Source of the DNA: a virus
Reading direction: 5' to 3' (one strand)
Length of the DNA stretch: 64,000 nt
Virus record (IMG/VR): IMGVR_UViG_3300035698_015907
Within the stretch, counting starts at the first letter, position 1. Each line of letters begins with the position of its first letter. Shown one piece after another: positions 15,595 to 58,820 of the stretch. Below the pieces are notes generated by a model. It made no database searches. It was given only the letters and a program-made list of their open reading frames with translations, and had not been told where the DNA came from. The position numbers and the translations under genes are program-made.

Positions 15595-16646
15595 TTTTTA
15601 TGATTCTTTCCTGTGAATCTTTGATTAACGATCTTTAATGCTCTCATCGATCCAGAAACTACATCAAAAAACTTAAGAACAAACCCTTCAATATCTCTTT
15701 CATTTATTACTACGTCAGAACAATTTTTCAGCTGCTTAACCAACTCTATAACATTGTTATAGTGCTGCTCATTTTCTGTTATATCTCTTAGAATGTTATC
15801 ATATTTTTTATTAATATTCTCGATGGCTTTTTCTCTAACCATCTTTGATACTTTTTTCTGTTCTTTCTGAATTAGAAAATTTTTGAATGCATCTATGTCC
15901 ATAGAATTAAAATAGTATGTTCTGAAAGACGAATTCAAGAATTCATTTAGTTCTTTTTTGTAACCAATTTTTTCTATTGATTTCGCAGATTTCACATTCT
16001 TAAGTAGAGATTTTACTGATAAATTACATTCCATTAATCTGAGTGATGTGATATAACTATCACTGATGTATGGCGTGTTTTTAACATAATGGATGGATTT
16101 ACTATTTCTATGTGGGTCGCTTTCGCATGGTACAAATTTGCCATCGACACATTTAGATGTTATAGTGATAGCTAATTTCTTGTTTGGATCGTAGGTAGAA
16201 CCCAAATCATATGTTATAACATTCGGTGTTATGTAACATGATAAACCGCTGTCATCATATTCCATCCATCCAATTTGATATAACACATTTTCACCACCTA
16301 ATATTTCTTCAGCATAATCTAATGCTATACTAAGAATTTTTAGCTGGTTTTTCTTGTCTGAATAAGCTTTTTCAATATCAGATTTATTAGTGAACATAGG
16401 AGATTTAACTCCTTTATATCCTACAGCAGGCAAGCTATTATGGATACCAACTTTTATAGACATAGCATCGTCTATTTTTTCTGAAATTTCACATCTAAAA
16501 GAATTAGACCCCATAGCTTTAAGTGACATTTCATCAAAGCACACTGATGCTAATTCTAATGATTCAATACACTTTTCAGCATTTTCATCAAGTTGCCACA
16601 CGTGATCAATATGTTCTATGACCGGAGGCTTTATATCAATACTCAT
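15576..16646 (-). CDS. Conserved T4-like hypothetical protein that usually precedes the cytidylyltransferase
   Basis: HIDH, EKID, TPNVITY, EGFV, KIVNQRF motifs. Confidence 0.55.
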   Translation of the reverse strand: MSIDIKPPVIEHIDHVWQLDENAEKCIESLELASVCFDEMSLKAMGSNSFRCEISEKIDDAMSIKVGIHNSLPAVGYKGVKSPMFTNKSDIEKAYSDKKNQLKILSIALDYAEEILGGENVLYQIGWMEYDDSGLSCYITPNVITYDLGSTYDPNKKLAITITSKCVDGKFVPCESDPHRNSKSIHYVKNTPYISDSYITSLRLMECNLSVKSLLKNVKSAKSIEKIGYKKELNEFLNSSFRTYYFNSMDIDAFKNFLIQKEQKKVSKMVREKAIENINKKYDNILRDITENEQHYNNVIELVKQLKNCSDVVINERDIEGFVLKFFDVVSGSMRALKIVNQRFTGKNHKKWHQTP

Positions 16647-18229
16647 TATATAATCCTAATCTTGAGAACATTTCTATTTCCATCATAATCAACATGTCGT
16701 AACACCGTTTTAATTTTTAATTCGGCGTTCAAATCTTTAAGTATTTCAAGATTTTCAACTCTATCATCCCACATCTGTACTTCATCATATGATCCATTTA
16801 CAACTAAATCTTTTATAACACGTTTCTTATTTTCTTCGGTAGTTTCATTATTCAATTTTATATTGCCAGATCTATGAATATGTATTTTGTTTGCATCGAT
16901 ATTATATTCATTCAATTTCTTTAAGAATATATCATGATCAGTGAAATCTGTTCTAGCTGTTACTATAATAACATCTTTTCCGTCATTTGATAATTTTAGC
17001 ATTCTATCAATCATTTTTTGTATAGGTAATGCATTACCAAAGAAGTGTTCAGAGTCTTTAAATGTTTCATAAGAAAATGAATGATCATTCATAAGTTCAT
17101 GATCATGATATTCTTTTGTAGATAATTTATGTACAACAGCACCAGATTTATCTATTACATGAACTGATGGTTCAGTACCTTCTTTATACCAGAATAATGT
17201 ATCATCCATATCAAAAATATAGAGCACACGCTTTTTTCTTTTTCGTTCATTAAGCATTTGTACTTTAAAATCACCACGCCAATTAGTAACAGGTCCAGAA
17301 TTTGTTCGTATTGATAAAGTAGCAACTATTTCTTCTACTTGAAATTTCTTATTGAATGCTAGAAAATTGATATTAATAGAATTACTGTTATTGTGAACTC
17401 TAAAATTTTCATATTTCTCAGAAGCTTCTTTAGTCTTCCGTTCAATGTTATACACATCAAACAAAGCACCAGCTGGATGCACTCTTACATGCGTTCTATA
17501 ATGTGGAAAAACAGTATCATGACACGAAGCTTCAATTATGATATTTTTGATAAAATCAGAGCTGCTATTTTCTAATGAGTTTCTAATAGCTTGAGCTATA
17601 TTGCGTCGATATGCTAAACTAGATTGTTCAGCTTTTTTCGCAATATCAGTGCCTTTCAGACTTTTATATCTGTCATGATTTTCTTTTGCTGTGCCATTAA
17701 AACCGAGCTGTTTTATGTATTTGTCATGTTGTTTTCTAAAAGAATTTAGATAATCAATTTTTAATTTTTCTTCTAAAGTCGAACAACCAGAATTTCTTAA
17801 TGTAGCATGTTTTGATGTACCGTACTTAGCTGAAATACCAATAAAGTTACCGGTAGAAATAGTCTGTATCATTAAATCAGCATCAGAATTTATATCTTTG
17901 ATACCAGTAAGTTTTTCATGCTCACCTATAGATCCTAAGCTGTCATCAAGTGATGTCCATGTAACGCTCTGAACATCAGTAGTGTTACATAGATGGCCAT
18001 CAACATGCAGCGCAGATTTAATATGTTCTGATAAAGAATATGAATGCTCAGATATTAAATCACAAGCTTCAATTCCTAGTGTATTAACACATACATTATA
18101 AATTTCAGATGGAGAAGATTCTTCAGATCTAAAATGATTAGGCCACGTATTTCCAGATAAAGCCCATGCTAACATTATTTCATGAGCTTTACCGCGAGCA
18201 TCATGTTTGCTCCCGTTAATTCTTGTCAC
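16646..18229 (-). CDS. Fusion of a PD-(D/E)XK-like nuclease domain and a HAD phosphatase domain
   Basis: DADLM...GISAKYG N-terminal; FDMDDTL, VTAR, WDD..ENL C-terminal. Confidence 0.65.
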   Translation of the reverse strand: MTRINGSKHDARGKAHEIMLAWALSGNTWPNHFRSEESSPSEIYNVCVNTLGIEACDLISEHSYSLSEHIKSALHVDGHLCNTTDVQSVTWTSLDDSLGSIGEHEKLTGIKDINSDADLMIQTISTGNFIGISAKYGTSKHATLRNSGCSTLEEKLKIDYLNSFRKQHDKYIKQLGFNGTAKENHDRYKSLKGTDIAKKAEQSSLAYRRNIAQAIRNSLENSSSDFIKNIIIEASCHDTVFPHYRTHVRVHPAGALFDVYNIERKTKEASEKYENFRVHNNSNSININFLAFNKKFQVEEIVATLSIRTNSGPVTNWRGDFKVQMLNERKRKKRVLYIFDMDDTLFWYKEGTEPSVHVIDKSGAVVHKLSTKEYHDHELMNDHSFSYETFKDSEHFFGNALPIQKMIDRMLKLSNDGKDVIIVTARTDFTDHDIFLKKLNEYNIDANKIHIHRSGNIKLNNETTEENKKRVIKDLVVNGSYDEVQMWDDRVENLEILKDLNAELKIKTVLRHVDYDGNRNVLKIRII

Positions 18230-27842: not shown

Positions 27843-28427
27843 TTAGTTTCTATCATTTATCAATTTCTCTATTTTTTCTTTAACATAAGCAGGGTTAGCT
27901 TTGCCTCGAGCTTCTTTCATAACTTGGCCAACTAGCCAATTATTTACTTTGTCTGAACCATCTAATTTTTCAGAATTAGCTTCAATGATATTAATTATCG
28001 TTGTATCAATATCACTATTTTTCACTGGAACATATTTAGGATCGGATAAAATTTTGGAGAGCTCTTCACCAAACAAATATCGCCTAATTACATCTTTGAA
28101 ATGTCTCTTATCAAGAACTTCAAATTCAAACATCATTCTACATAGAACATTCATTAATTCTATGTTAACTAGATATTCTAAACCGACTTCACCAAATTCA
28201 TTAGATATTGCATTGCCATCATTATTAATAAGCTTTGCTATCTTTGAAGAATAGTCAAAGTTTTTAGTAAATGGTTCACTAAATTTAATTGCTTCTGGTA
28301 TCCAAGCATCTGTCAGTCTAACATAACCTGTAGTGAATTCTATATTTCCAAATTCATCAAGTCTGTTGCATGTACCATATTCTATATCATCTACAATTTT
28401 AACATTTTCATATGAATATTTAGACAC
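27843..28427 (-). CDS. Protein with GatB/YqeY-like C-terminal tRNA-binding domain
   Basis: NWLVGQVMKEARGKANPAYVKEKI matches the GatB tail. Confidence 0.7.
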   Translation of the reverse strand: MSKYSYENVKIVDDIEYGTCNRLDEFGNIEFTTGYVRLTDAWIPEAIKFSEPFTKNFDYSSKIAKLINNDGNAISNEFGEVGLEYLVNIELMNVLCRMMFEFEVLDKRHFKDVIRRYLFGEELSKILSDPKYVPVKNSDIDTTIINIIEANSEKLDGSDKVNNWLVGQVMKEARGKANPAYVKEKIEKLINDRN

Positions 28428-29646
28428 AAGTCTTCCCTATTCCATCAAGCAGTTCTTCACGATTTAATACAAATCTAGAATTTCCCCACTCGGTGCGAAG
28501 CTCTTTAAGCTTAATACCAACATCAGGACCAGGTGGAATTCCAAGTTCAATTAAATCTTTACCAGAGACTGGAAATTTTGGCTTTGGCATTGCCATATAT
28601 TCATCAAGAAATCTTGCAAGCTTATGATCACCAATATAAACAGAATAATGATATAGCTTTCCAGGATCAAGTTCACCTCGTGCTATTCTAGACATAACAT
28701 ATTCTGGGCCATCAACCCAGTAAATTGCATGTCCTTTAGCTCCATCTTCTACAATATGATTCTTAATTATGAATTTCATAATATCATAAGAATTATTGTC
28801 GAACTTAAGTCTCTTTCTCAAATTTATCAGATTATCTAACGAGTTGAGCATTGCTACTATGTAATACAACGGGCTCTTTGCTCGATCATTTATAGCAAGT
28901 TCTTCTATTTTAGCAATGCAGTCAGGTGATAGATACAAACTAGCATCTATAGAATACAGTATATTATGATATTCCATAATCTTTAGCACTGTTAATGCAG
29001 ATGTGCCAGAACAAATCTTAATAAGTTCAGACCAAATTCTTTCACCAGAGATTTCTGAAAGATTGCTACTTAATTTTGTGATTATTTCTAATGTTATAGG
29101 ATCAATGACTGGATTATTAAGCTTTGACGCGAAACGAAAATAACGAAGTATTCTAAGATAATCTTCTTTGATTCTAGAATCAGCATAACCTACAAATTTA
29201 ATGACTTCGTTATTTAGATCATTCAAGCCATCAAAATAATCGTATAATACACCTTCTTTATCCATATACATAGCATTGAATGTGAAATCTCTGCGTGATG
29301 CATCAACTTCCCAATCAGTAGTAAATTCTATTTCAGCATGACGGCCATCAGTAATAATATCTTTACGAAGAGATGTTATTTCAACGGCTTGCTTATTGAT
29401 AATAGCTGTAATTGTACCGTGCTTCAGACCGGTTGGAATTACATTATATCCTAATGCAGCTAAAGAACTGCATATATCAGTCGGCTTAACATCTGTAGCA
29501 ATATCAATATCATCAGGTTCAATGCCCTGAAGCATATCACGTACACAACCTCCAACAAGTCGTGCACTGCCACTTTTTATACTAGCAGCCTTATCAACCT
29601 TTCGTAGTATTGATAATGTGTTATGATCTATTTCAAAAGAATTCAT
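28420..29646 (-). CDS. cca: CCA-adding tRNA nucleotidyltransferase
   Basis: VGGCVRD, DIDIAT, DASRRDFTFNA, EDYLRILRYFRF, SGERIWSE. Confidence 0.95.
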   Translation of the reverse strand: MNSFEIDHNTLSILRKVDKAASIKSGSARLVGGCVRDMLQGIEPDDIDIATDVKPTDICSSLAALGYNVIPTGLKHGTITAIINKQAVEITSLRKDIITDGRHAEIEFTTDWEVDASRRDFTFNAMYMDKEGVLYDYFDGLNDLNNEVIKFVGYADSRIKEDYLRILRYFRFASKLNNPVIDPITLEIITKLSSNLSEISGERIWSELIKICSGTSALTVLKIMEYHNILYSIDASLYLSPDCIAKIEELAINDRAKSPLYYIVAMLNSLDNLINLRKRLKFDNNSYDIMKFIIKNHIVEDGAKGHAIYWVDGPEYVMSRIARGELDPGKLYHYSVYIGDHKLARFLDEYMAMPKPKFPVSGKDLIELGIPPGPDVGIKLKELRTEWGNSRFVLNREELLDGIGKTCV

Positions 29647-29708: not shown

Positions 29709-31175
29709 TTATTTCTTTTTCCACGGCATATCTACTACGCCAGCCATAATAGATCCTCTTGGCATAATACGATCTTCAACAGTAGCAAGACCATATTTAT
29801 TTATTTGACTCTGGACTTGTTCAGCATTTTTATATGATGACGGAAGCTCAGATATATCAATATCACCAGTGTAAAACCGAATATCAAGACCTTCGGTTTC
29901 CCTTTTCAATACTGCATCTTTAACTTCTTTTGGAACAGTCCTATTTTTATTCCACTGATCTCTCACGCCAAATTCATCTACAATTCTTCTAGTATGTTCA
30001 GTTCTTGACAAGTTTCTTCCTGCACCATGGGGTGCAAAACCAAGATTCTTATCTGAATTAGCATGGCTAGTAAGAAGAATTGGCTGAGCCATATTCAAAG
30101 GAATGATAGTAATTCCATTATCATCTAATGAATACCCATCATATGATGGCGTAGCTCCTTTAGCATGGAAGAAATTATCTCCACGTTTGAACACGAAGTT
30201 GTGTTCATTCCAAAACCAGTCTTCCATGGAATTACCAAGTCTTTTTGCAATAGTTTCGTGTATAGCAAAATGATTCATTTTAGTCCACAAACGAACAGTC
30301 TGAAGAGCTATCCAATAATCATGACCAATTTTGCTGTCATAATCTAGCCACGCCTGATGCTCTGGAATTCTTGGTGCTACAACAGCAGTATGCTTCTTTG
30401 CAGCTGACATTCCATGCTTATATAACAAACCACCAAGAGACCTAGAACCATGATGAGTAACTAGACACATCTGTCCTGTGGATTCTAATTCACCGACATA
30501 CAAAAAGTGATTTCCATCACCTTGAGTCATAAAGTGGTTCTCGGCAGCATCAACAAACTTCTTATTATCAAGAAAACTATTTCCTTCGAATTTAGAAATA
30601 AGTTCCTTTAGTTTGTGGTTTCTGCGCACTTCTGATTTAGATCTTTTGCCTAAACCAAAGTGAGTAACTTTCATTGCTTCATCAAGAACTCTTTTTACAT
30701 CATCATTGCGCTTGAAAATAGTTACTGCCATCGAGCAGCAAATATCAGCAGAATGCATTCCTGGATGAATGGTACCTTTAGTTTCTATTACGCCCCCAAC
30801 TGGAATAGTTCCAAGCTGATTTCCAGCCGGCATTGAATCTGGCATAACCGCAGCTCTTTCCACGGTCGGTAGTCTCATAATTGCATCCATGTGTTGGATT
30901 ACATTTTTGAGATTCTCTCTTTCATCATCAGATTCTGGATCTAAAAATATCTCGAACGGGCGAGAATTTGTACGAAGAGATAAAAGGCTTTCTTCATACA
31001 CTTTCTGTTTTTCTAGAACATCATCATAGAATTTTAAAGCAGCAAATTTAATTTCATCTAATGAACTGCCTTTATTTTCCATTAGATTTACAACATTTAA
31101 CAAATCACGAAAGTGTTTACCTTCCGGGATTCCCCACTCTTTTAATTTTTCGCCATTCATAGTATCATCCGCCAC
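29709..31175 (-). CDS. rtcB: RtcB 3'-phosphate/5'-OH RNA ligase
   Basis: MPD, IPVGGV, ADICCSM, GDGNHF, HHGSR, EHN, KGATP, APHGAGR, ELPSSYK. Confidence 0.93.
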   Translation of the reverse strand: MADDTMNGEKLKEWGIPEGKHFRDLLNVVNLMENKGSSLDEIKFAALKFYDDVLEKQKVYEESLLSLRTNSRPFEIFLDPESDDERENLKNVIQHMDAIMRLPTVERAAVMPDSMPAGNQLGTIPVGGVIETKGTIHPGMHSADICCSMAVTIFKRNDDVKRVLDEAMKVTHFGLGKRSKSEVRRNHKLKELISKFEGNSFLDNKKFVDAAENHFMTQGDGNHFLYVGELESTGQMCLVTHHGSRSLGGLLYKHGMSAAKKHTAVVAPRIPEHQAWLDYDSKIGHDYWIALQTVRLWTKMNHFAIHETIAKRLGNSMEDWFWNEHNFVFKRGDNFFHAKGATPSYDGYSLDDNGITIIPLNMAQPILLTSHANSDKNLGFAPHGAGRNLSRTEHTRRIVDEFGVRDQWNKNRTVPKEVKDAVLKRETEGLDIRFYTGDIDISELPSSYKNAEQVQSQINKYGLATVEDRIMPRGSIMAGVVDMPWKKK

Positions 31176-34129: not shown

Positions 34130-35635
34130 ATGAACAAGTTTATGAAGTCACTAAAGACAAATCAAGAAAAGAAGCTAACCGAGAATGGAGGAATTACTTT
34201 TGATTCCTCGGGTCAATCTAATGTTGATCTGTTTTTCCAAATCGGTGCACTTCGTGGTCAAGAACCAGATCGGCTTTATAGACTTTTTTCTAAGGCTTAC
34301 GGCGAAAATAAAGAACTAGCAATTAGAACTATGTTGTGGGTTCGTGATGTTAGGGGAGGAGCTGGTGAACGCAAGATTTTTAGGGATCTACTAACCTGGC
34401 TCGAAACTAATGATCGCGATATTTTGGTAGATATTCTTCCAGCGATTCCAGAGCTGGGACGTTGGGACGATCTTTTGGTTTTCGGTACTAAGAAATTCAA
34501 GACCAATGCTTTCAATATGATTGAACAAGCTTTGGGCGAAGCAAATGGTCTTTGTGCAAAATGGATGCCTCGAAAGGGCGTCGTTGCAAATGAACTTAGA
34601 AACCATATGAAACTTTCACCGAAGCGATATAGAAAACTTCTAGTTGAATTAACTAATGTTGTCGAAAATCAGCTTTGCGCTAAGCAGTGGGAAGACGTTA
34701 ATTATGAAAAAGTTCCTTCTGTAGCTCAGTCTAGATATAATAGAACTTTCCTACGACATGATGAGGAAAGGTATCGTGAATTTAGTGAAAAAGCTAAGAC
34801 ATATGCTGAAGCTGTAGCATCAGGTGAACCGATTCCAGATGATGTTGAAAAGGTAAAAATCAATGCTGGTGCCGTATATCCATATGATGTTTTGAAGTCT
34901 GTCGTTAATAGTTATTTTGGCGGCTATGGTTATGGAGCACAAGATAATAGTTTCAGTGTCGATACTGTTAGAGCACAGTGGTTGACTTTGCCTAATTATA
35001 TAGGAAATAATAGTGTTCTTCCTATGGTTGATGTTTCAGGATCAATGACTTCATTGATTGGTTCGAAAAATCTAAGTGCGTTGCAAGTTGCATTGTCACT
35101 TGGTTTGTATATGTCTGGAAAGAACAGCGGCGCATTTCATAATGCTCTATTGACTTTCACTTCTGTGCCGGAGTTGATTCACTTGAAGGGTGAAGATATT
35201 ATTGCTCATATAGAGCAGATGTCTAAAGATCGCTGGTATGGATCTACAAACGTTTCTGCAGCATTTACAAAGATTTTGTCTTTCGCAGTTAAGAATGCTG
35301 TTCCACAGGAAGATATGCCTGAATATATCATAGTATTTTCTGATATGGAATTTGATCGTGCTGATCGTACTGGTGGTGAAACTGCATCTGAAGATATGGA
35401 AATCCAGTTTTCTAGTGCTGGCTATAGAGTTCCTAAAGTTGTTTGGTGGAATATCCAATCACGTCAGGATAATGTACCAGTATCATTTAATAAGAATGGT
35501 GCTGCTCTAGTTTCTGGTTTTTCGCCATCTCTTGCAAAGAACATCATGAGTGGTGAAAGTATTAATCCAACTGAAATGATGCTAAAAGTTATCATGGACG
35601 AAAGATACGATCTAAAGAAGTATGCAGCCGCTTAA
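34130..35635 (+). CDS. Ro60/TROVE-like + vWA protein (DUF2828 family)
   Basis: TENG, DLFF, RDVRGGAGER, GRWDDLL, AKWMPR, VDVSGSM MIDAS, STN, FSDMEFD, WN, SGFSP. Confidence 0.88.
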   Translation: MNKFMKSLKTNQEKKLTENGGITFDSSGQSNVDLFFQIGALRGQEPDRLYRLFSKAYGENKELAIRTMLWVRDVRGGAGERKIFRDLLTWLETNDRDILVDILPAIPELGRWDDLLVFGTKKFKTNAFNMIEQALGEANGLCAKWMPRKGVVANELRNHMKLSPKRYRKLLVELTNVVENQLCAKQWEDVNYEKVPSVAQSRYNRTFLRHDEERYREFSEKAKTYAEAVASGEPIPDDVEKVKINAGAVYPYDVLKSVVNSYFGGYGYGAQDNSFSVDTVRAQWLTLPNYIGNNSVLPMVDVSGSMTSLIGSKNLSALQVALSLGLYMSGKNSGAFHNALLTFTSVPELIHLKGEDIIAHIEQMSKDRWYGSTNVSAAFTKILSFAVKNAVPQEDMPEYIIVFSDMEFDRADRTGGETASEDMEIQFSSAGYRVPKVVWWNIQSRQDNVPVSFNKNGAALVSGFSPSLAKNIMSGESINPTEMMLKVIMDERYDLKKYAAA

Positions 35636-40110: not shown

Positions 40111-40142
40111 TCTAATTAAATTTAATAACATATAATAAACGG

Positions 40143-40173
40143 TTGACAACGGATGCTAACCGTGGTATAAATA
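40143..40173 (+). promoter_or_regulatory. Composite early (TTGACA-N17-TATAAA) / late (TATAAATA) promoter for tmRNA
   Basis: Both motifs overlap at the -10 element. Confidence 0.7.
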
Positions 40174-40176
40174 AAG

Positions 40177-40573
40177 TCATGATCAAGTTGTTAAGTCAGC
40201 AGGTTCATAGCAGATGGTTTCAGGACCCGGGGGCAGTACCCGGCGCCTCCACCATGAGTACACAGTAACAAAATATATTTTGTTATAACAAAATATTGGT
40301 CAGGACTTCCGCGGCCCTGGTTTTATTATAGTTGTTAAACGATCTCACTCGCGATCACTCGCGATGAGATGCAGAATCTATAATAGTTATCTGTGTATTC
40401 TTGATGGGGGCGAAATAGGTTTCGACTGATGCAGTAAACTAGAAAATCGATCATCGTTTTGCACACGCCAGTGCTCGTAAGATAGATGCCAACGATAATG
40501 ACATCGCTGTTGAGATGGCCCTAGCGGCTTAATCTCTCGGGGTTCGAAGGTACCTGGCAACAGAAACCTTCAC
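40177..40573 (+). ncRNA. ssrA: Permuted two-piece tmRNA (alphaproteobacterial type); tag ANDNDIAVEMALAA (40488-40532)
   Basis: Acceptor piece ends GGACCCGGGGGCAGTACCCGGCGCCTCCACCA (40254); coding piece starts GGGGGCGAAATAGGTTTCGAC (40406); outer ends approximate. Confidence 0.93.
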
Positions 40574-40587
40574 TTAATTTTGGCTAA

Positions 40588-40710
40588 AGGATTGTTACAG
40601 CAAAATTTATGCTTGGCTTTCAACCACCTTGTCGTAGGTTCGAATCCTACCTTCTCCAATTGGGGAAGTAGCTCAGTTCGGTAGAGCGGGTAACGCAAAA
40701 AAGCAATCCT
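40588..40710 (+). ncRNA. Y-RNA-like ACAGCA-motif RNA 4 with circularly permuted tRNA module (YrlA-like topology)
   Basis: AGGATTGTT-ACAGCAA...AGCAATCCT stem; order is T arm, loop-closed acceptor CTTCTCC-AATT-GGGGAAG, then D arm. Confidence 0.75.
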
Positions 40711-40742: not shown

Positions 40743-40819
40743 GCCCCGATAGCTCAACGGTTAGAGCAGATGTTTCTAAAGCATTGTGTTGTGGGTTCGA
40801 ATCCCACTCGGGAGCGCCA
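40743..40819 (+). tRNA. Amber-anticodon tRNA(CUA)
   Basis: GATGT-TTCTAAA-GCATT anticodon arm, canonical D and T arms, bulged A in acceptor stem, GCCA end. Confidence 0.75.
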
Positions 40820-41429: not shown

Positions 41430-42370
41430 TATATAACAAGAATTGCGTGTGGCAAATGGATGGTGTTTAGCCATCGCCTACTAATCAAGGAATAACCTGT
41501 CTCTTAAAAGACAAACGAGATTAGATGCAGCAAGAATTGGCGGCGTGACGTCATTAGGATAAGTTCCGTAAGGAACCCAATGCAGGAATTCCTACATACC
41601 TGCTCTGAAAGGCCATTTACGCAGACCTGACCGACATCGCGAGATGTGCTTCGTTTAGAAAACGGACGGAGATAAAATGGAAGTCAGGCAGAGGAAATAG
41701 CATATGTTTATGTGCCACCTCGGTGGGAACACAAGCATATGAAGAGATCTGGAAAATCCTCTCTGCAACCAAACTGACCATATTCTACGGTAAAGGGTAG
41801 TTCATTTGTTCGAGATCGCAATCAAGAGCTTATGAGCAGTTTTGCGGGTTAAGGGTTTCACTTGTAGTGAAGTCATTGATCCAAAGAAATCAGCTGAGTA
41901 GTCGGCAGACGAAAGGTATGAGGAGTGTTGTATTCTGTATCTAACAAGATTCGGAGCAACTGAGATAGCACTTTTCTGTAGGTTAGCATAGCTCAAACTA
42001 GAGCAACTCGGTTTTAACGAGTAGGTTGGTGGTCTGATAGCCACCTGTTTATTTAAACGCAAAGACTATCTCAGATAACCACGTAAAGTGGCAAATGGTT
42101 GAACCTTCGGGTAATCAACCCCAAAGAGACTCGCAAGGTCAAATTGGTTCGTATTTAATGTTTCATAAAGGGAAGCACCCTTGAATGGCCCGCAAGGTCA
42201 ATGAGAATATGAATGCGGAGTAGTGGTTATTGTTAAGCCTAACGCATGGCTTTAAATTGCGCCATCGATGTTTTACCGGAAAATTCTGGTGGATGTCTTG
42301 TTAATCTCACTCGCAAGGTGTAGAGTACGGCAGGAAGAAGCATCATATAAACGGGTAATCTCACCGTTTT
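41430..42370 (+). ncRNA. Large structured ncRNA, GOLLD-like
   Basis: ~0.9 kb without a credible ORF; many GNRA/UUCG-capped hairpins (CGCAAG x3, CGTAAG, CGCGAG, CTTCGG); within a phage tRNA array; family assignment from recollection, not searched. Confidence 0.6.
41982..42053 (+). tRNA. tRNA-Lys(UUU)-like module embedded in the large ncRNA
   Basis: GCTC/GAGC D arm, ACTCG-GTTTTAA-CGAGT, GGTGG/CCACC T stem; weak acceptor stem, no CCA. Confidence 0.5.
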
Positions 42371-54538: not shown

Positions 54539-54620
54539 GCCCATGTATCGTCACCGCCTCCTAAGCGGTCGTTAAAAGCGTAACTGGAGTATGTCGGTTC
54601 AAGTCCGGCCATGGGTACCA
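54539..54620 (+). tRNA. D-arm-less rearranged tRNA-Arg(CCU)
   Basis: GCCCATG/CATGGGT-ACCA, ACCGC-CTCCTAA-GCGGT, T arm, long variable region. Confidence 0.7.
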
Positions 54621-54629
54621 CAAATTAAC

Positions 54630-54706
54630 GGCCTAGTAACTCAGCTGGACAGAGTAGCTCCCTTCTAAGGAGACAGTCGAGGGTTCGAATCCTTCCTAGG
54701 TCACCA
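54630..54706 (+). tRNA. tRNA-Arg(UCU)
   Basis: Loop CTTCTAA, A20, CCA. Confidence 0.95.
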
Positions 54707-55618
54707 ATTTTAAATGTGTATTATGAACCTATATTTTGAAAAAACATCGTTCTCTCATGTTACTAAAGAAGCTGATACAAGTGATGAATGGGATAGAGAC
54801 GATACTAGTACTGAATGGTCTTTTGGTAGATTAGGTCTTACAAAAAGACAATATGAAGAATCATTTCCAGTCTCATTTGATGTAAAAGCTGGTGATATTG
54901 TTTTTGCAGTAGTAGCAGTATGGAGTACTGGGAATTCATTCAGTCATGATGAACAACACTGTTCTGAACTATTTGGCATATTTAAAGATGCTAACGAAGC
55001 ACTAGAATTTGAAAAAGCACTAAAAAATAAATCTGTACCTGATATATATTATCCGTGGGATGGATATTTTGAAAGTTTAGATTATATTGAACTTTTAACG
55101 AGAATTGTTGAACCGTGAAATGGGCATTACTTTTATTTTTGGTTCCAATGTTTCCGAATGCGGAAGAAACCACTGGTTATTCTATATTTGAAGATGAACT
55201 TGGATATAATATTACAATAGATGCTTCAAATGAAGATGCATGCAACGTCGCAAAAAATTATTTTCTTGGTAAAATTGTAGACCTTCCTACTGAGCAAGAA
55301 CCAGACTGGATTGTTCTCAAATCTATATGTAAATTAGCCTTGACAGCGTAGTCTGTTTGTGTTATTATTAACATATGAATAGGAAAGAGTTTTTCTTAGC
55401 GGTGGCTAAGATAATAGGAAATGAAGATACTTATATAGAACCAACTGACTATATAAGAAGGTGGAAAAGAAAAAGATCAAAAGAAGGTTTATATCCTGGT
55501 TTTGGAATTATTAGATGGTTCAATGAAAATTTGATCTGTGTAGTTTTAGAAGGTTCTGGTTCCAAAGTAGTTTTATCCGCAGATGCAGCTTTGTTAATTA
55601 TCAAAAAGAAGATTGAAA

Positions 55619-55868
55619 ATGAAAAGACGTAATTTTCTAACTGGAATTACATTAGTACTTGCCGCATCTGCAACACGTGCTGTTGCAGCAGAAGATGTTG
55701 CAGTAACTCATGATTATGATGAGTGGATTCATATTACTAATAATATGCCCTATGCCCTATGAGCACACTAAACGCATCGTTGAAAATATTGATGCATTCA
55801 AATTGCATTCGAATTTCATGCTAAATACACATGCAGTAATTGATGGGCGAGATATATACGACGTCTAA
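55619..55868 (+). pseudogene. Tat-signal protein frameshifted by a 7-nt tandem duplication
   Basis: MKRRNFLTG start; TATGCCC repeated twice at 55744-55757; removing one copy opens the frame to 55868. Confidence 0.5.
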
Positions 55869-56097
55869 GAAATTTAATGCAGTTTTAAGTAATGAATTAA
55901 TACAAGATTTGAAAGCTATTCAAGGTTTTGATGCAGAAAAAGAACTAGTAGAGATCATATCTACTGAAATTTCACAGGAACTTGATGAATTTCTGAAATC
56001 TAACCATTATGTCTATGATATATCAGCAGTTAGATTTATAGATGATAGAACGTTTGCACCCTCGCTAGGATTTATAATGAGGTATGCTGAAGTATAA
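55840..56097 (+). CDS. Miniature gp23 (major capsid protein)-like protein
   Basis: ELIQDLKAIQGFDAEKELVEIISTEI and DDRTFAPSLGFIMRY resemble two conserved gp23 segments. Confidence 0.7.
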   Translation: MMGEIYTTSKKFNAVLSNELIQDLKAIQGFDAEKELVEIISTEISQELDEFLKSNHYVYDISAVRFIDDRTFAPSLGFIMRYAEV

Positions 56098-56103
56098 GAA
56101 TTC

Positions 56104-56178
56104 GGGCCTGTAGCTCAATGGTGGAGCCGACCGCTCATAACGGTCTGGTTGTAGGTTCGAATCCTACCGGGCCCACCA
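56104..56178 (+). tRNA. tRNA(CAU), probably Ile2 (lysidine type)
   Basis: GGGCCTG acceptor, loop CTCATAA, ACCA. Confidence 0.85.
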
Positions 56179-56368
56179 CTTTACCCGTGTCTATTCCCAG
56201 ACTCGTTAATAATGGGGAAGGTGTATAGCGGCCACACAGCATCCAGCGCTAGGTATTCTGGATAAACAAAGTGCCTAGTGCCTAGGAAAGACCTGATTGG
56301 AGACTTCGCGAAGTCTCTAATTATAGGATCAGTATTTTGGTAGATACTGATCCTATTCCACAGATTAA

Positions 56369-56459
56369 GCGCGTAAGACTTGGCAGTCAGGGATGTTTTA
56401 TAAACATTTCGCTCCAGATGGGAGCCCTTGAGAGAGTTCGATCCTCTCTGCGCGCACCA
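56369..56459 (+). tRNA. tRNA-Ile(UAU) with long variable arm and short D arm
   Basis: GATGT-TTTATAA-ACATT, GCTCC/GGAGC variable stem, ACCA. Confidence 0.7.
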
Positions 56460-56464
56460 ACATT

Positions 56465-56539
56465 GCTAGATAGGAGTTGATAGCGGCTCGCTGGACTGTG
56501 AATCCGGAGGGGTAGGGGCAGTACCTACATCTAGTACCA
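56465..56539 (+). tRNA. tRNA-His(GUG) lacking G-1
   Basis: Loop CTGTGAA, G1:U72, A73. Confidence 0.85.
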
Positions 56540-57158
56540 ATAGGAGGAATTTTTATGGATAAAACAGTAGGTAGATGTTCTCAATGTGGAGGCAATGTTA
56601 CAGTTCCAAGTGAATGGCTTGGCATACATCCTCCGGTTCCAACTTGTCATTCTTGCGGAGCTCAAGCAGTTAGCAGATTGCCAATCATAGAAACTGAGCC
56701 AGTCGCAGAAGCTAATTCTGTAGGTTATCTTGCAGAATTTGATAAATGGACGAATAACACTCGTTCAAAATTAGATAAGATTTATAATTTAAAAGAAAAT
56801 AGCAAACCATAGGTAATTTAATTTGGAAGATGATGAATTTGGCCTTGAGATGCTAGAATCAGTATCAATAGGTTACGAGCTGGGTGAAAAGTTCATGTTT
56901 ATGCTTAATGACAATCCAGCTGAAAATGTAATAGATATGCATGGCAAACCAATAAAGGAAGATTTCTTCGTTCCAGAATTAAATGACGAAGATGAAATAA
57001 AAGGTTTCAATGCTGCTATTCATGATCATCTACAAGTTGAAGATGATTTTGATTATCTGAAGTTGTTTCTTTTTATAAAGAACGCAGGTTAATATAAAAT
57101 GAATATGAAAATAAAGGAGAGTTGTATGTTATGTAGATAAACTACAGGAGAACATACA

Positions 57159-57641
57159 ATGGAAAATTGGAATGGCATAAGTGCCGTTACTGTCTGTTTC
57201 AGGTCTGGAAAGAAGATTGAATATTCTTCGTTAGAAGAAGCTGTTTCTCATTCCACATATGCTGAAATTGAGACAGAGTCCAAAGATCAGCATGATTTGA
57301 TTATTCCTGCTTGGAAAATCAAAGAAGTTTCTGATAAAGTTCCGAGGATTTATCGGAGCTGGAAAAGATTTGCTAACAGGAAATTCAAGTTTCGAGACGG
57401 TCCTGTTCCTTATGTGCGCAGCAAGCGCGGTGGTAGGGCTGGAGGAGTTCATAAAGGAAAGCTGAAGCAGCAGCTTGTTTCTTCTTATCAGTATCTTGAT
57501 GATATGGAAGAATCAGAAGGTTATCTCAAGCCGTGCACACGAAATGTTCGTCCGTTCTTTTTCTGGAATGATTATTATGAAGAAGCCGGTTTGAGAAATA
57601 ATAACTGGAAGCGCTTCAGGAAACAGCAATACAAAAATTAA
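57159..57641 (+). CDS. Hypothetical basic protein
   Basis: GGAG RBS; FRDGPVP and WKRFRKQQYK motifs. Confidence 0.6.
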   Translation: MENWNGISAVTVCFRSGKKIEYSSLEEAVSHSTYAEIETESKDQHDLIIPAWKIKEVSDKVPRIYRSWKRFANRKFKFRDGPVPYVRSKRGGRAGGVHKGKLKQQLVSSYQYLDDMEESEGYLKPCTRNVRPFFFWNDYYEEAGLRNNNWKRFRKQQYKN

Positions 57642-57800
57642 TTTACTTTTTTGTTGACACAACAGCAAAAACGTGGTATAAATATAAACACAATCAATAA
57701 AGGAAATACAAAGTGACTTACAGTGAACGCGATTATCGTGAGGATTATTCAATCGAGTAAAGCTCGACGCGGACATCTGTTGCCTTGTATAGGCCAATCA

Positions 57801-57830
57801 GGGACCGAGTCGAAAGACCGGTCCTTTTTT
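57801..57830 (+). terminator. Rho-independent terminator
   Basis: GGGACCG-AGTC-GAAA-GAC-CGGTCCT then T run. Confidence 0.7.
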
Positions 57831-58027
57831 ATTGGGGAATTGAAATGGATAAGTACGATAATTATAACAAAAACGAACTTATCAACATCATGAAAGTTCG
57901 TATTCGAGCTGGTAACTGGACCGAAGCAAGGACTATCGGAGAGTATATCAGACAGAATTTTAGAGAGCCTGCAACCAAGGAGGGTGACACTACGTTGCTG
58001 GTTTGAAAAAATCTGTAAAAAGTTAAT

Positions 58028-58110
58028 GGGAAGGTAAAGCTAGTGGTTCTAGCAATGAGTCTGTAAAACTCATCCTAACGGGAGTGGATCGAAACCGCAC
58101 TTTCCCACCA
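58028..58110 (+). tRNA. tRNA-Tyr(GUA)
   Basis: Loop CTGTAAA, variable arm, ACCA. Confidence 0.9.
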
Positions 58111-58130
58111 CAATATGATCGGAGAATATT

Positions 58131-58433
58131 ATGTTTACGGGAGGAAAAGAAAACTTCCTTAAGAAAGATATTTCTGATAGAGACCTTGATGTTCTATTTG
58201 GTCCTTTTGAAGAAGGCGAAAAAGAGAAAGCTAATGTTTGGCTAGAAGATGCTGCTATGCTAGAAGATATAGTAGTGATGCTTGGGAAAATGCCATCAAA
58301 AGGACAAGCTAGAAAGAATGGATGGGGAGGAGAAATCCCCAAAGGTTTCAAAGAGTGGAAAATAGGAAAAACAAAGTTCTGGACTTGGGGTGGTTACAAC
58401 AAGGAAGAATTGGTGATAGAACAGATATGCTAA
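58131..58433 (+). CDS. Small protein resembling the S4-like C-terminal domain of TyrRS
   Basis: IVVMLG..PSKGQARKNG...KIGK. Confidence 0.5.
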   Translation: MFTGGKENFLKKDISDRDLDVLFGPFEEGEKEKANVWLEDAAMLEDIVVMLGKMPSKGQARKNGWGGEIPKGFKEWKIGKTKFWTWGGYNKEELVIEQIC

Positions 58434-58511
58434 AGAGTACTCTTTAGTATGATATGCGAAACATTTGCTGTTAACAAAATGTTAGAGGTGAGAGCCCTCC
58501 TATCACCGCCA
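58412..58511 (+). tRNA. Atypical tRNA-Asn(GUU)-like RNA with a greatly extended D hairpin
   Basis: GGTGATAG/CTATCACC-GCCA, long TGCTAAAGAG/CTCTTTAGTA hairpin, loop CTGTTAA. Confidence 0.6.
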
Positions 58512-58516
58512 TTAAT

Positions 58517-58591
58517 GTTCACGTATCCGTCTGGTGACGGAAGCTGTCTGTCTAACAGCCGAGGCGGGTTCGATTCCCGTCGTGAGCGCCA
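58517..58591 (+). tRNA. tRNA-Asp(GUC)
   Basis: Loop CTGTCTA, G73, CCA. Confidence 0.9.
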
Positions 58592-58651
58592 TTAAGTTGT
58601 TGATTGCGTAAATAGGTAATCCGAGATCCTACAATCAACAACTCTTTATAT

Positions 58652-58728
58652 ACCCACGTAGCTCAGCGGACAGAGTGCAACCCTGCGAAGGTTGAAGTCG
58701 GTAGGTTCAAATCCTCCCGTGGGTACCA
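58652..58728 (+). tRNA. tRNA-Arg(GCG)
   Basis: CAACC-CTGCGAA-GGTTG, A20, CCA. Confidence 0.88.
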
Positions 58729-58739
58729 ATACAAATAAT

Positions 58740-58820
58740 GCCCCTGTATCGCCCCTGCCTTCGAAGCAGTCGTTAAAAGCGTAATGGAGTATGCAGGTTC
58801 AAATCCTGTCAGGGGCTCCA
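58740..58820 (+). tRNA. D-arm-less rearranged tRNA-Arg(UCG)
   Basis: GCCCCTG/CAGGGGC-TCCA, CTGC-CTTCGAA-GCAG, same variable region as 54539. Confidence 0.7.

Follow-up and report, generated by a model that had tools for sequence, protein, structure and literature searches.

The 64,000-nucleotide viral DNA of IMG/VR record IMGVR_UViG_3300035698_015907, referred to here in its entirety as the window, carries two short genes of an unusual tRNA design, one with the anticodon CCU (copy 1, 54539-54620) and the other with UCG (copy 2, 58740-58820). Both are very probably functional arginine decoder tRNAs, reading AGG and CGA/CGG, respectively, and are members of a phage-borne family in which, judging from the sequences, the core of the molecule has been rewired. 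The two genes are not peculiar to the phage of the window but are part of a widespread phage family. Each element has about 80 bases, and re-reading of the letters confirmed the positions and sequence features reported in an earlier inspection of this DNA (the original prediction), which had described two arginine tRNAs that lack the D arm.

Several features of the tRNA cloverleaf were present in both copies, a 7-bp acceptor stem, a discriminator base, CCA, an anticodon arm and a T arm. No local D hairpin (positions 10-13 with 22-25) was found, as only 7 nt separate the acceptor and anticodon stems (UAUCGUC in copy 1, UAUCGCC in copy 2). The acceptor strands were at the gene ends in the normal order and the CCA was encoded, which is not the arrangement of a circularly permuted gene. 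In copy 1, a 23-nt stretch, CGUUAAAAGCGUAACUGGAGUAU, lay between the anticodon arm and the T arm. Copy 2 followed the same plan, with the anticodon loop CUUCGAA, U73, CCA and the long stretch CGUUAAAAGCGUAAUGGAGUAU, which is the copy 1 stretch minus one C. The stems of the two copies differed by compensatory changes, while the connectors differed by one base and one indel, a pattern not expected of chance or decay. The parts are listed below, where h1 is a helix flanking the anticodon arm, J1 and J2 are junction segments and R1 is the covariance model of the family.

54539..54620, + strand, rewired tRNA-Arg(CCU), copy 1, whole gene with encoded CCA (sequence; RF00005, 29.9 bits; R1, 89.9 bits); 7-bp acceptor stem with a G1.U72 wobble, its 3' strand followed by A73 and the encoded CCA
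54546..54548, + strand, copy 1 junction J1, UAU (U8, A9 and one further nucleotide)
54549..54551, + strand, copy 1 helix h1, 5' strand CGU, pairs with 54578-54580
54553..54569, + strand, copy 1 anticodon arm, ACCGC / CUCCUAA / GCGGU, anticodon CCU at 54560-54562
54570..54577, + strand, copy 1 linker from the anticodon stem to the h1 3' strand, CGUUAAAA
54578..54580, + strand, copy 1 helix h1, 3' strand GCG, proposed to play the part of D-stem strand 10-12
54581..54592, + strand, copy 1 junction J2, D-loop-like connector leading directly into the T stem, UAACUGGAGUAU
54593..54609, + strand, copy 1 T arm, GUCGG/UUCAAGU/CCGGC, canonical loop
58740..58820, + strand, rewired tRNA-Arg(UCG), copy 2, whole gene with encoded CCA (sequence; RF00005, 31.7 bits; R1, 92.4 bits)
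58750..58752, + strand, copy 2 helix h1, 5' strand CGC, pairs with 58779-58781
58754..58770, + strand, copy 2 anticodon arm, CCUGC / CUUCGAA / GCAGU, anticodon UCG at 58761-58763
58779..58781, + strand, copy 2 helix h1, 3' strand GCG
58782..58792, + strand, copy 2 junction J2, D-loop-like connector, UAAUGGAGUAU
58793..58809, + strand, copy 2 T arm, loop UUCAAAU

Standard annotation largely passed over these genes. ARAGORN in its default mode called 31 RNA genes in the window, neither rewired gene among them, and of the two, a whole-window scan with the Rfam tRNA model RF00005 at the gathering threshold listed copy 2 only. When both copies were aligned to RF00005, the 15 D-arm positions were reduced to 4 nt and 19-20 nt were inserted in the variable region.

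Similarity and pattern searches among phage sequences revealed a large phage family with covarying helices. A blastn search of GenBank phages gave matches in 161 records from phages of Streptomyces, Escherichia, Klebsiella, Salmonella, Proteus, Erwinia, Vibrio and Mycobacterium, among others. The matched groups included Streptomyces phages of about 130 kb, phi92-like phages, Mydovirus, Sugarland-like and 121Q-like phages, Kuravirus, and Bas93 and Bas94 of the BASEL collection, together with Erwinia Kolesnikvirus, one Vibrio phage and Mycobacterium phage Wildcat. When IMG/VR was scanned for exact patterns of the connector common to both copies, further copies turned up in viral contigs with no relation to each other, including a 500-kb contig. 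A broader IMG/VR scan, with a pattern that fixed only the connector and the T arm and left the anticodon unconstrained, returned at least 120 stretches. Combined with the loci found earlier, it gave a large set of at least 133 distinct sequences; counts out of 133 below are among the matches listed. A separate alignment of 29 distinct members recovered by similarity was made with MAFFT and served as the basis of R1.

R1 gave 89.9 and 92.4 bits for the two copies, which were in its seed so that their own scores are partly by construction, and found exactly these two in the window. The separation at other loci is free of this effect, with family members scoring 65-97 bits and the canonical tRNAs of the window and of 32 other loci scoring 32 bits or less. 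When the main-type motif was sought in a single genome of each prokaryotic species, 8 matches were obtained. Four of these fit R1, all on contigs of metagenome-assembled genomes, and three of the four had several canonical tRNA genes next to them; the design thus appears to be carried by phages. The four remaining genome-contig matches (L038, L041, L044 and L045) had no R1 match at E <= 1e-6 and no tRNA call. Four viral pattern matches (L007, L008, L016 and L017) were chance matches without tRNA structure, and a candidate at L012/L018 was rejected as a member because it was a normal tRNA-Cys (R1, 31 bits). A megablast search of GenBank phages with the 5.5-kb region of the window gave no match, and the first loosened pattern, for which connector 1 and the linker were the anchor, had a single match, L003, which was not a tRNA.

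In GenBank, the family genes were usually not annotated; otherwise they were labeled tRNA-OTHER, tRNA-Val(aac) or tRNA-Leu(taa), or were overlain by a hypothetical coding sequence. ARAGORN missed 144 of 148 family genes.

In four phages that are not related to each other (Bas93, Klebsiella phage Roth37 and the Streptomyces phages TunaTartare and Braelyn), an HNH endonuclease gene lies immediately next to the rewired tRNA-Arg, an arrangement that may offer a route for horizontal spread of the rewired gene. The positions of these endonuclease genes were:

1034-1483 of locus L026, HNH endonuclease gene
1585-2094 of locus L030, HNH endonuclease gene
990-1499 of locus L023, HNH endonuclease gene
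1124-1498 of locus L025, HNH endonuclease gene

The pairing proposed at the outset, CG(U/C) with GCG, proved to be a genuine covarying helix, h1. Of the 87 cells of h1 in the similarity-derived alignment (columns 11-13 with 40-42), 84 were paired, each of the three pairs showed substitutions in both strands, and RNAalifold predicted the helix unaided. All seven acceptor pairs were 100% paired and all covary, the T helix was 99.3% paired, and over the whole structure 93.2% of the cells were paired, versus 33-46% when the partners were slid. An h1 of 3 bp or more was possible for 128 of the 133 sequences of the large set, whereas shuffling of the 3' partners gave 54 on average and never more than 67, and 29 base combinations occurred, including CGC:GCG, CUC:GAG, CGG:CCG, CCG:CGG, CAC:GUG and CAG:CUG. 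Compensatory changes in four helices exclude decay, and the earlier argument that conservation across two anticodons speaks against it is supported.

The description of these tRNAs as lacking the D arm holds only in part. There is no D hairpin, but an apparent equivalent of the D-stem is present with its strands on either side of the anticodon arm, so that the molecule is better described as rewired or permuted. Between h1 and the anticodon stem is a non-Watson-Crick layer (C.A in 57, A.C in 23 and A.A in 23 members of the large set), reminiscent of the 26.44 hinge of canonical tRNA. A Watson-Crick fourth pair at this position, 14:39, was rejected, being unpaired in 26 of 29 sequences. In Streptomyces phages LilMartin, Mildred21 and Moab (UAUUGGC...GCGCA UAA), h1 fits only with a bulge. 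The Wildcat member (locus L034, 1466-1538) has a 4-bp h1 contiguous with the anticodon stem except for a 2-nt bulge; it also has C33 in the loop CCCCUAC, anticodon CCU, the sole U33 exception among 132.

The AA(C)UGGA segment had been likened to a D-loop, and this comparison stands. The motif UAA(N)YGGA...AU was kept in every similarity-derived member, in which the UAA, the GGA and the final AU of J2 were invariant, as were U8 and A9, and it resembles the D-loops of the neighboring canonical arginine tRNAs of the window, AGCUGGACA and AGCGGACA. J1 was UAU in 109 of the 133 and UAN in all, and the T-loop was canonical (UUCRANY) in all listed members. Pairing of a J2 'GGAG' with the anticodon loop was considered and discarded, as it is possible for CCU and UCU loops and impossible for the ACG members. 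The linker began with a nearly invariant CGUUAA in the 46 main-type members (54570-54575 and 58771-58776 in the window), while the linkers of the other members were 2-11 nt long. In the other subfamilies they have 2-5 nt and a different sequence, for example AGAAA, AGCA or GA, and no structure considered explains the conservation of CGUUAA.

Although the broader search placed no constraint on the anticodon, every parsed anticodon was one for arginine and all six arginine types were covered (UCU 88, CCU 21, ACG 13, UCG 8, CCG 1, GCG 1 and one register slip). Among the listed members, C35 and A37 were each found in 132 of 132 and U33 in 131 of 132, and position 36 was U or G only. The discriminator was A in 55, G in 52, U in 25 and C in 1 (A or G in 107 of 133), and CCA was encoded in 86. 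In bacteria the arginine identity set consists of A20, the main determinant in E. coli, C35, U/G36 and A/G73 (PMC9976931). Copy 1 has A73 and copy 2 U73; A/G73 is in the bacterial set, and the review table lists U73 as well (PMC9976931). An A was directly 3' of the GG in every member, in a different backbone context from A20. Positions 35 and 36 of the anticodon match the bacterial identity set, and the discriminator and the A after the GG may match it as well (PMC9976931). The original prediction had proposed that the variable region rebuilds the arginine identity A; the invariant A is at an A20-like position and may be recognized as such by arginyl-tRNA synthetase (ArgRS).

The distribution of anticodons points to real decoding. 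At 37 loci, all partial genomes, that contained both rewired and canonical arginine tRNAs, an anticodon was shared in none (Fisher test for non-redundancy, p = 0.0015 for UCU and 0.014 for ACG), and where two rewired copies occurred in one locus their anticodons always differed. The arginine set of the window, canonical UCU and GCG with rewired CCU and UCG, is complete and non-redundant, and in the open reading frames of the window AGG, CGA and CGG make up 9.0%, 8.8% and 3.0% of the arginine codons. Moreover, the genomes of Escherichia phages Bas93 and TH42 (Kuravirus), both complete, gave no RF00005 match other than a rewired tRNA-Arg(UCU), and the same held for a 43-kb contig estimated to be 84% complete. 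Both the non-redundancy with canonical isoacceptors and the sole-tRNA status argue for a decoding role. Such decoding would be feasible, in that even a synthetic tRNA from which the D arm is missing altogether is accepted by EF-Tu and the ribosome of E. coli, its stability being limited by PNPase degradation (PMC11551756).

In the structure proposed for the rewired tRNA, three helical elements would meet in a three-way junction, with the acceptor stem stacked on the canonical T arm. The nucleotides after U8-A9-N would pair with the strand 3' of the anticodon arm to form the 3-4 bp h1, which would stack on the anticodon stem through the non-Watson-Crick hinge, as the D-stem does in a normal tRNA. 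In copy 1, the 5' strand of h1 would have the geometric role of D-stem strand 22-25 and lead, by way of the hinge nucleotide C54552, to the anticodon stem. Downstream of the h1 3' strand is the connector U-A-A-(N)-Y-G-G-A-N(1-5)-A-U, which runs straight into the T stem and would supply the functions of the D-loop, 1) A14, 2) R15, 3) G18-G19 for docking on the T-loop, 4) the arginine determinant A20 and 5) U48. The predicted tertiary contacts are U8-A14, with the first A of UAA, A15-U48, with the last U before the T stem, and G18 and G19 on the T-loop; J2 of copy 1 would accordingly provide U13, A14, A15, G18, G19, A20 and U48. The segment comprising the 5' strand of the D-stem and the D-loop would have been transferred from the 5' to the 3' side of the anticodon arm, so that the L-shape and the ArgRS contacts (A20 equivalent, C35, U/G36 and N73) are kept by a different backbone path. 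Since the 5-bp anticodon stem, the hinge and the 3-4 bp h1 together approximate the length of the canonical stack of anticodon stem, 26.44 pair and D-stem, an L-shape of normal dimensions is plausible. The genes would be co-transcribed in the tRNA arrays, processed like their neighbors and charged by the host ArgRS, and would fill the arginine anticodon slots left open by the canonical arginine tRNAs of the phage. Such a gene could have originated if positions 10-45 were duplicated in tandem within it and complementary parts of the duplicates were then lost, a route that may be likened to that by which circular permutations arise in proteins.

Several observations weigh against this interpretation, 1) the RF00005 scores of the two copies, 29.9 and 31.7 bits, are barely above the gathering score of 29, 2) U73 and, at the top of the anticodon stem, a C.U mismatch at 27:43 are found in copy 2, 3) single-sequence thermodynamics preferred a local hairpin in the region of the linker and J2 over the 3-bp h1 in both window copies, so that h1 would need its tertiary context to form, 4) the proposed tertiary pairs involve invariant bases, on which covariation is uninformative, 5) the invariance of J2 in the 133-sequence set was partly imposed by the search pattern, and the similarity-derived set alone is free of this bias, and 6) the loci behind the non-redundancy count are partial genomes.

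The local hairpin is the basis of one alternative, that these are class II-like tRNAs with a variable hairpin of their own, GUUA...UAAY, and no h1, that this hairpin is the anticodon arm of a tRNA-Phe(AAA), tRNA-Val(AAC) or tRNA-Leu(UAA), or that the genes are decaying pseudogenes. The minimum free energy fold of both window copies contains the hairpin, ARAGORN at a lowered threshold (-ps80) called both genes tRNA-Phe(aaa), and GenBank labels the Yaboi gene tRNA-Val(aac) and the 121Q gene tRNA-Leu(taa). However, the hairpin can form in only 46 of the 133 sequences, the other 87 being unable to form it, and even in the 46 no covariation occurs at its inner pairs, the substitutions observed disrupt it and 8 lack the outer pair. 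It was rejected as the family fold on these grounds, and a covarying variable-arm hairpin of the class II type was absent among the 133. The ARAGORN call mistook the real anticodon arm for a D arm. The GenBank Val and Leu labels were set aside since the supposed alternative anticodon varies between close relatives, while the real one is always for arginine. As the compensatory changes in four helices also dispose of pseudogenes, this group of explanations is extremely improbable. It is very unlikely, though less so, that the genes encode a tRNA-like RNA that does not decode, for instance a nuclease decoy, a regulator, a primer or the substrate of a non-ribosomal arginine transfer. The non-canonical architecture would suit such a role, as would the other odd tRNA-like genes and large structured RNAs in the window, but the anticodons are for arginine only, include all six types and never repeat an anticodon of the canonical arginine tRNAs found at the locus, the loop itself has the canonical form (U33, C35, A37), CCA is encoded in 86 of the 133 and some phages have no other tRNA.

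A genuinely D-armless tRNA with the Y-shape of mitochondrial tRNA-Ser(AGY), in which h1 merely extends the anticodon stem and J2 is flexible and undocked, is quite unlikely but deserves more weight than these. Neither copy has a D hairpin, and h1 of the Wildcat member is nearly continuous with the anticodon stem. Mitochondrial D-armless tRNAs also have an extended anticodon stem, which counts in favor of this explanation. Translation in E. coli, moreover, tolerates a synthetic Y-shaped tRNA (PMC11551756). Nevertheless, the GG and the canonical T-loop are conserved throughout, so the loss of the elbow seen in mitochondria is not apparent here, and retention of the UAA..YGGA..AU of J2 in all similarity-derived members is not expected of a mere spacer. 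The limit that PNPase sets on the synthetic D-armless tRNA argues that a stable natural form needs a folded core (PMC11551756).

The last possibility accepts a functional arginine tRNA and adds that the rewired core is an anti-defense device, making the molecule a poor substrate for a tRNA nuclease or modifying enzyme, of the host or of a phage shut-off system, that reads the D arm or variable region. This proposal is tentative and unlikely. There are precedents among other tRNAs. AriB of the PARIS system contacts the D-loop in a base-specific manner and the T5 tRNA-Lys escapes partly through a change in its D-loop (PMC12409363), while Retron-Eco7 and Septu cut tRNA-Tyr at its variable loop and the T5 tRNA-Tyr, with a different loop, resists (PMC13096335). 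The RtcB, CCA-adding enzyme, PNK-like protein, Ro-like protein and tmRNA of the window phage amount to a toolkit for damaged RNA, and the design has spread over phage lineages that are not related to each other, some small phages having no other tRNA. On the other hand, the literature search found no defense nuclease known to target tRNA-Arg by way of its D-arm, colicin D has the anticodon loop as its target and this loop is entirely canonical in the rewired tRNAs, and many phages keep canonical arginine tRNAs alongside that would stay vulnerable. The evasion of host nucleases suggested in the original prediction found no support in this analysis, only literature precedent for other tRNAs, and it is doubtful that a segment-swapped D-domain preserving the L-shape and ArgRS recognition was selected to hide an arginine tRNA from a tRNA-directed immune nuclease or modifier of the host reading the variable pocket or D-arm.

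The rewired tRNA has much in common with a canonical class I tRNA-Arg, including the 7-bp acceptor stem, discriminator and CCA, the 5-bp T stem with its UUCRANY loop, U8-A9, a 5-bp anticodon stem with the loop C32 U33 N C35 U/G36 A37 A38, a D-loop-like A-R-(Y)-(U)-G-G-A with an A20 equivalent and a length of 73-82 nt. It differs in having no D hairpin 5' of the anticodon arm, a D-stem equivalent formed by nucleotides 10-13 with a strand 3' of the anticodon arm, a D-loop equivalent in the "variable region" that leads directly into the T stem and, consequently, a three-way rather than a four-way junction. In the permuted tRNA genes of Cyanidioschyzon merolae, the break is in a loop, the ends are joined at the acceptor termini and a circular intermediate restores the cloverleaf. 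The order of segments in the rewired gene likewise differs from the canonical one, but here an internal segment is transposed, and as no known processing restores the canonical order, the mature rewired RNA itself must be non-cloverleaf.

The D-armless mitochondrial tRNA-Ser(AGY/AGN) of mammals and nematodes resembles the rewired form in the missing D hairpin, the three-way junction and the extended stack on the anticodon side (PMC9427863). It is a real decoder, as is proposed for the rewired tRNA, but has a short connector, no G18G19/T-loop elbow, a degenerate T-loop, a Y-shape and co-evolved organellar factors, whereas the rewired family has a canonical T-loop and a conserved GG connector and has to function with bacterial ArgRS, EF-Tu and ribosomes in their unmodified form. 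The synthetic 'mini HisT' of evolved E. coli demonstrates that the bacterial translation machinery can charge and use a tRNA of other than cloverleaf form, but it is an artificial, plain deletion of positions 11-25 that is Y-shaped and unstable and needs a host pnp mutation (PMC11551756); the rewired family is natural and conserved, and the elements of both the D-stem and the D-loop are retained in it, though reordered. Like the T5 tRNA-Lys that evades PARIS and the T5 tRNA-Tyr that evades retron-Eco7 and Septu, the rewired tRNAs are phage isoacceptors in arrays that differ from those of the host outside the anticodon (PMC12409363, PMC13096335, PMC10264068). The T5 tRNAs, however, have point or loop changes in a normal cloverleaf and a demonstrated nuclease, while the rewired family has a changed backbone topology and no known cognate nuclease.

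To our knowledge, textbooks present all bacterial-type tRNAs as cloverleaves. A 2024 paper stated the same of all known bacterial tRNAs (PMC11551756). No published description of the present architecture was found in the full-text literature, a search that left most subscription journals out of scope, so that a prior report is possible; in a Poultry Science paper on phage 1-6bf, tRNA-Arg appears only as a host typing locus. If the proposed structure is correct, the tRNA core tolerates rewiring of its backbone in the bacterial translation system, and the rewired form is evidently used, as far as the sequences indicate, by phages of Actinobacteria, Enterobacteria and Vibrio. The family would allow one to examine, in a natural setting, which features of the elbow are in fact read by ArgRS, RNase P, the CCA-adding enzyme, EF-Tu and the ribosome. 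It would also expose a systematic blind spot of annotation, and the design could serve as a new scaffold for engineered tRNAs. If the anti-defense proposal were also true, it would represent a structural form of counter-defense and a ready-made alternative scaffold. The decoding question is directly testable, because tractable E. coli phages (Bas93 and Kuravirus) have the rewired gene as their only tRNA.

Each rewired gene of the window is beside a canonical partner isoacceptor:

54630..54706, + strand, canonical tRNA-Arg(UCU), 9 nt downstream of copy 1 (ARAGORN; RF00005, 58.1 bits)
58652..58728, + strand, canonical tRNA-Arg(GCG), 11 nt upstream of copy 2 (ARAGORN; RF00005, 57.8 bits)

The window is from a giant phage with about 40 tRNAs. 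It encodes a PNK-like protein (16646-18229, - strand), a CCA-adding tRNA nucleotidyltransferase (28420-29646, - strand) and an RtcB-type ligase (29709-31175, - strand), and a Ro-like RNA-binding protein (34130-35635, + strand) is just upstream of the first tRNA array. A Ro-like gene is near the rewired tRNA of Streptomyces phage Francob as well. The idea that the rewired RNA is a Y-RNA-like partner of the Ro-like protein was rejected, as a true anticodon loop is present and Rfam found no Y RNA in the window. Together with a permuted tmRNA, these proteins and the approximately 40 tRNAs are consistent with a conflict over RNA integrity. The tmRNA is a two-piece permuted form (40139-40623, + strand; alpha_tmRNA, 108.6 bits; tmRNA_permuted, 78 bits), for which ARAGORN gave the tag peptide ANDNDIAVEMALAA. 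It is followed by a tRNA with the anticodon CUA (40743-40815, + strand; RF00005, 55.8 bits), labeled 'tRNA-Pyl' by ARAGORN, which is a potential amber suppressor and raises the question of TAG recoding in the window phage. A GOLLD RNA (41920-42367, + strand; RF02032, 172.3 bits versus a gathering score of 150) is located in the tRNA region between the tmRNA and suppressor tRNA and a tRNA-Cys.

Further tRNA genes lie between the two rewired ones. A 91-nt tRNA-Ile(UAU) (56369-56459, + strand) has an additional hairpin (GCUCC-AGAUG-GGAGC) within its variable region, and three genes, all on the + strand, were missed by ARAGORN in its default mode, tRNA-His(GUG) at 56465-56539, which has the unusual T-loop GGCAGUA, tRNA-Tyr(GUA) at approximately 58029-58111 and tRNA-Asp(GUC) at 58517-58592. 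The three were recovered solely by the mitochondrial or low-threshold modes of ARAGORN or by Rfam (Asp, 43.1 bits). A perfect 11-bp inverted repeat, GUUGUUGAUUG ... CAAUCAACAAC, with a 25-nt loop (58595-58641, + strand) lies between the tRNA-Asp and the tRNA-Arg(GCG).

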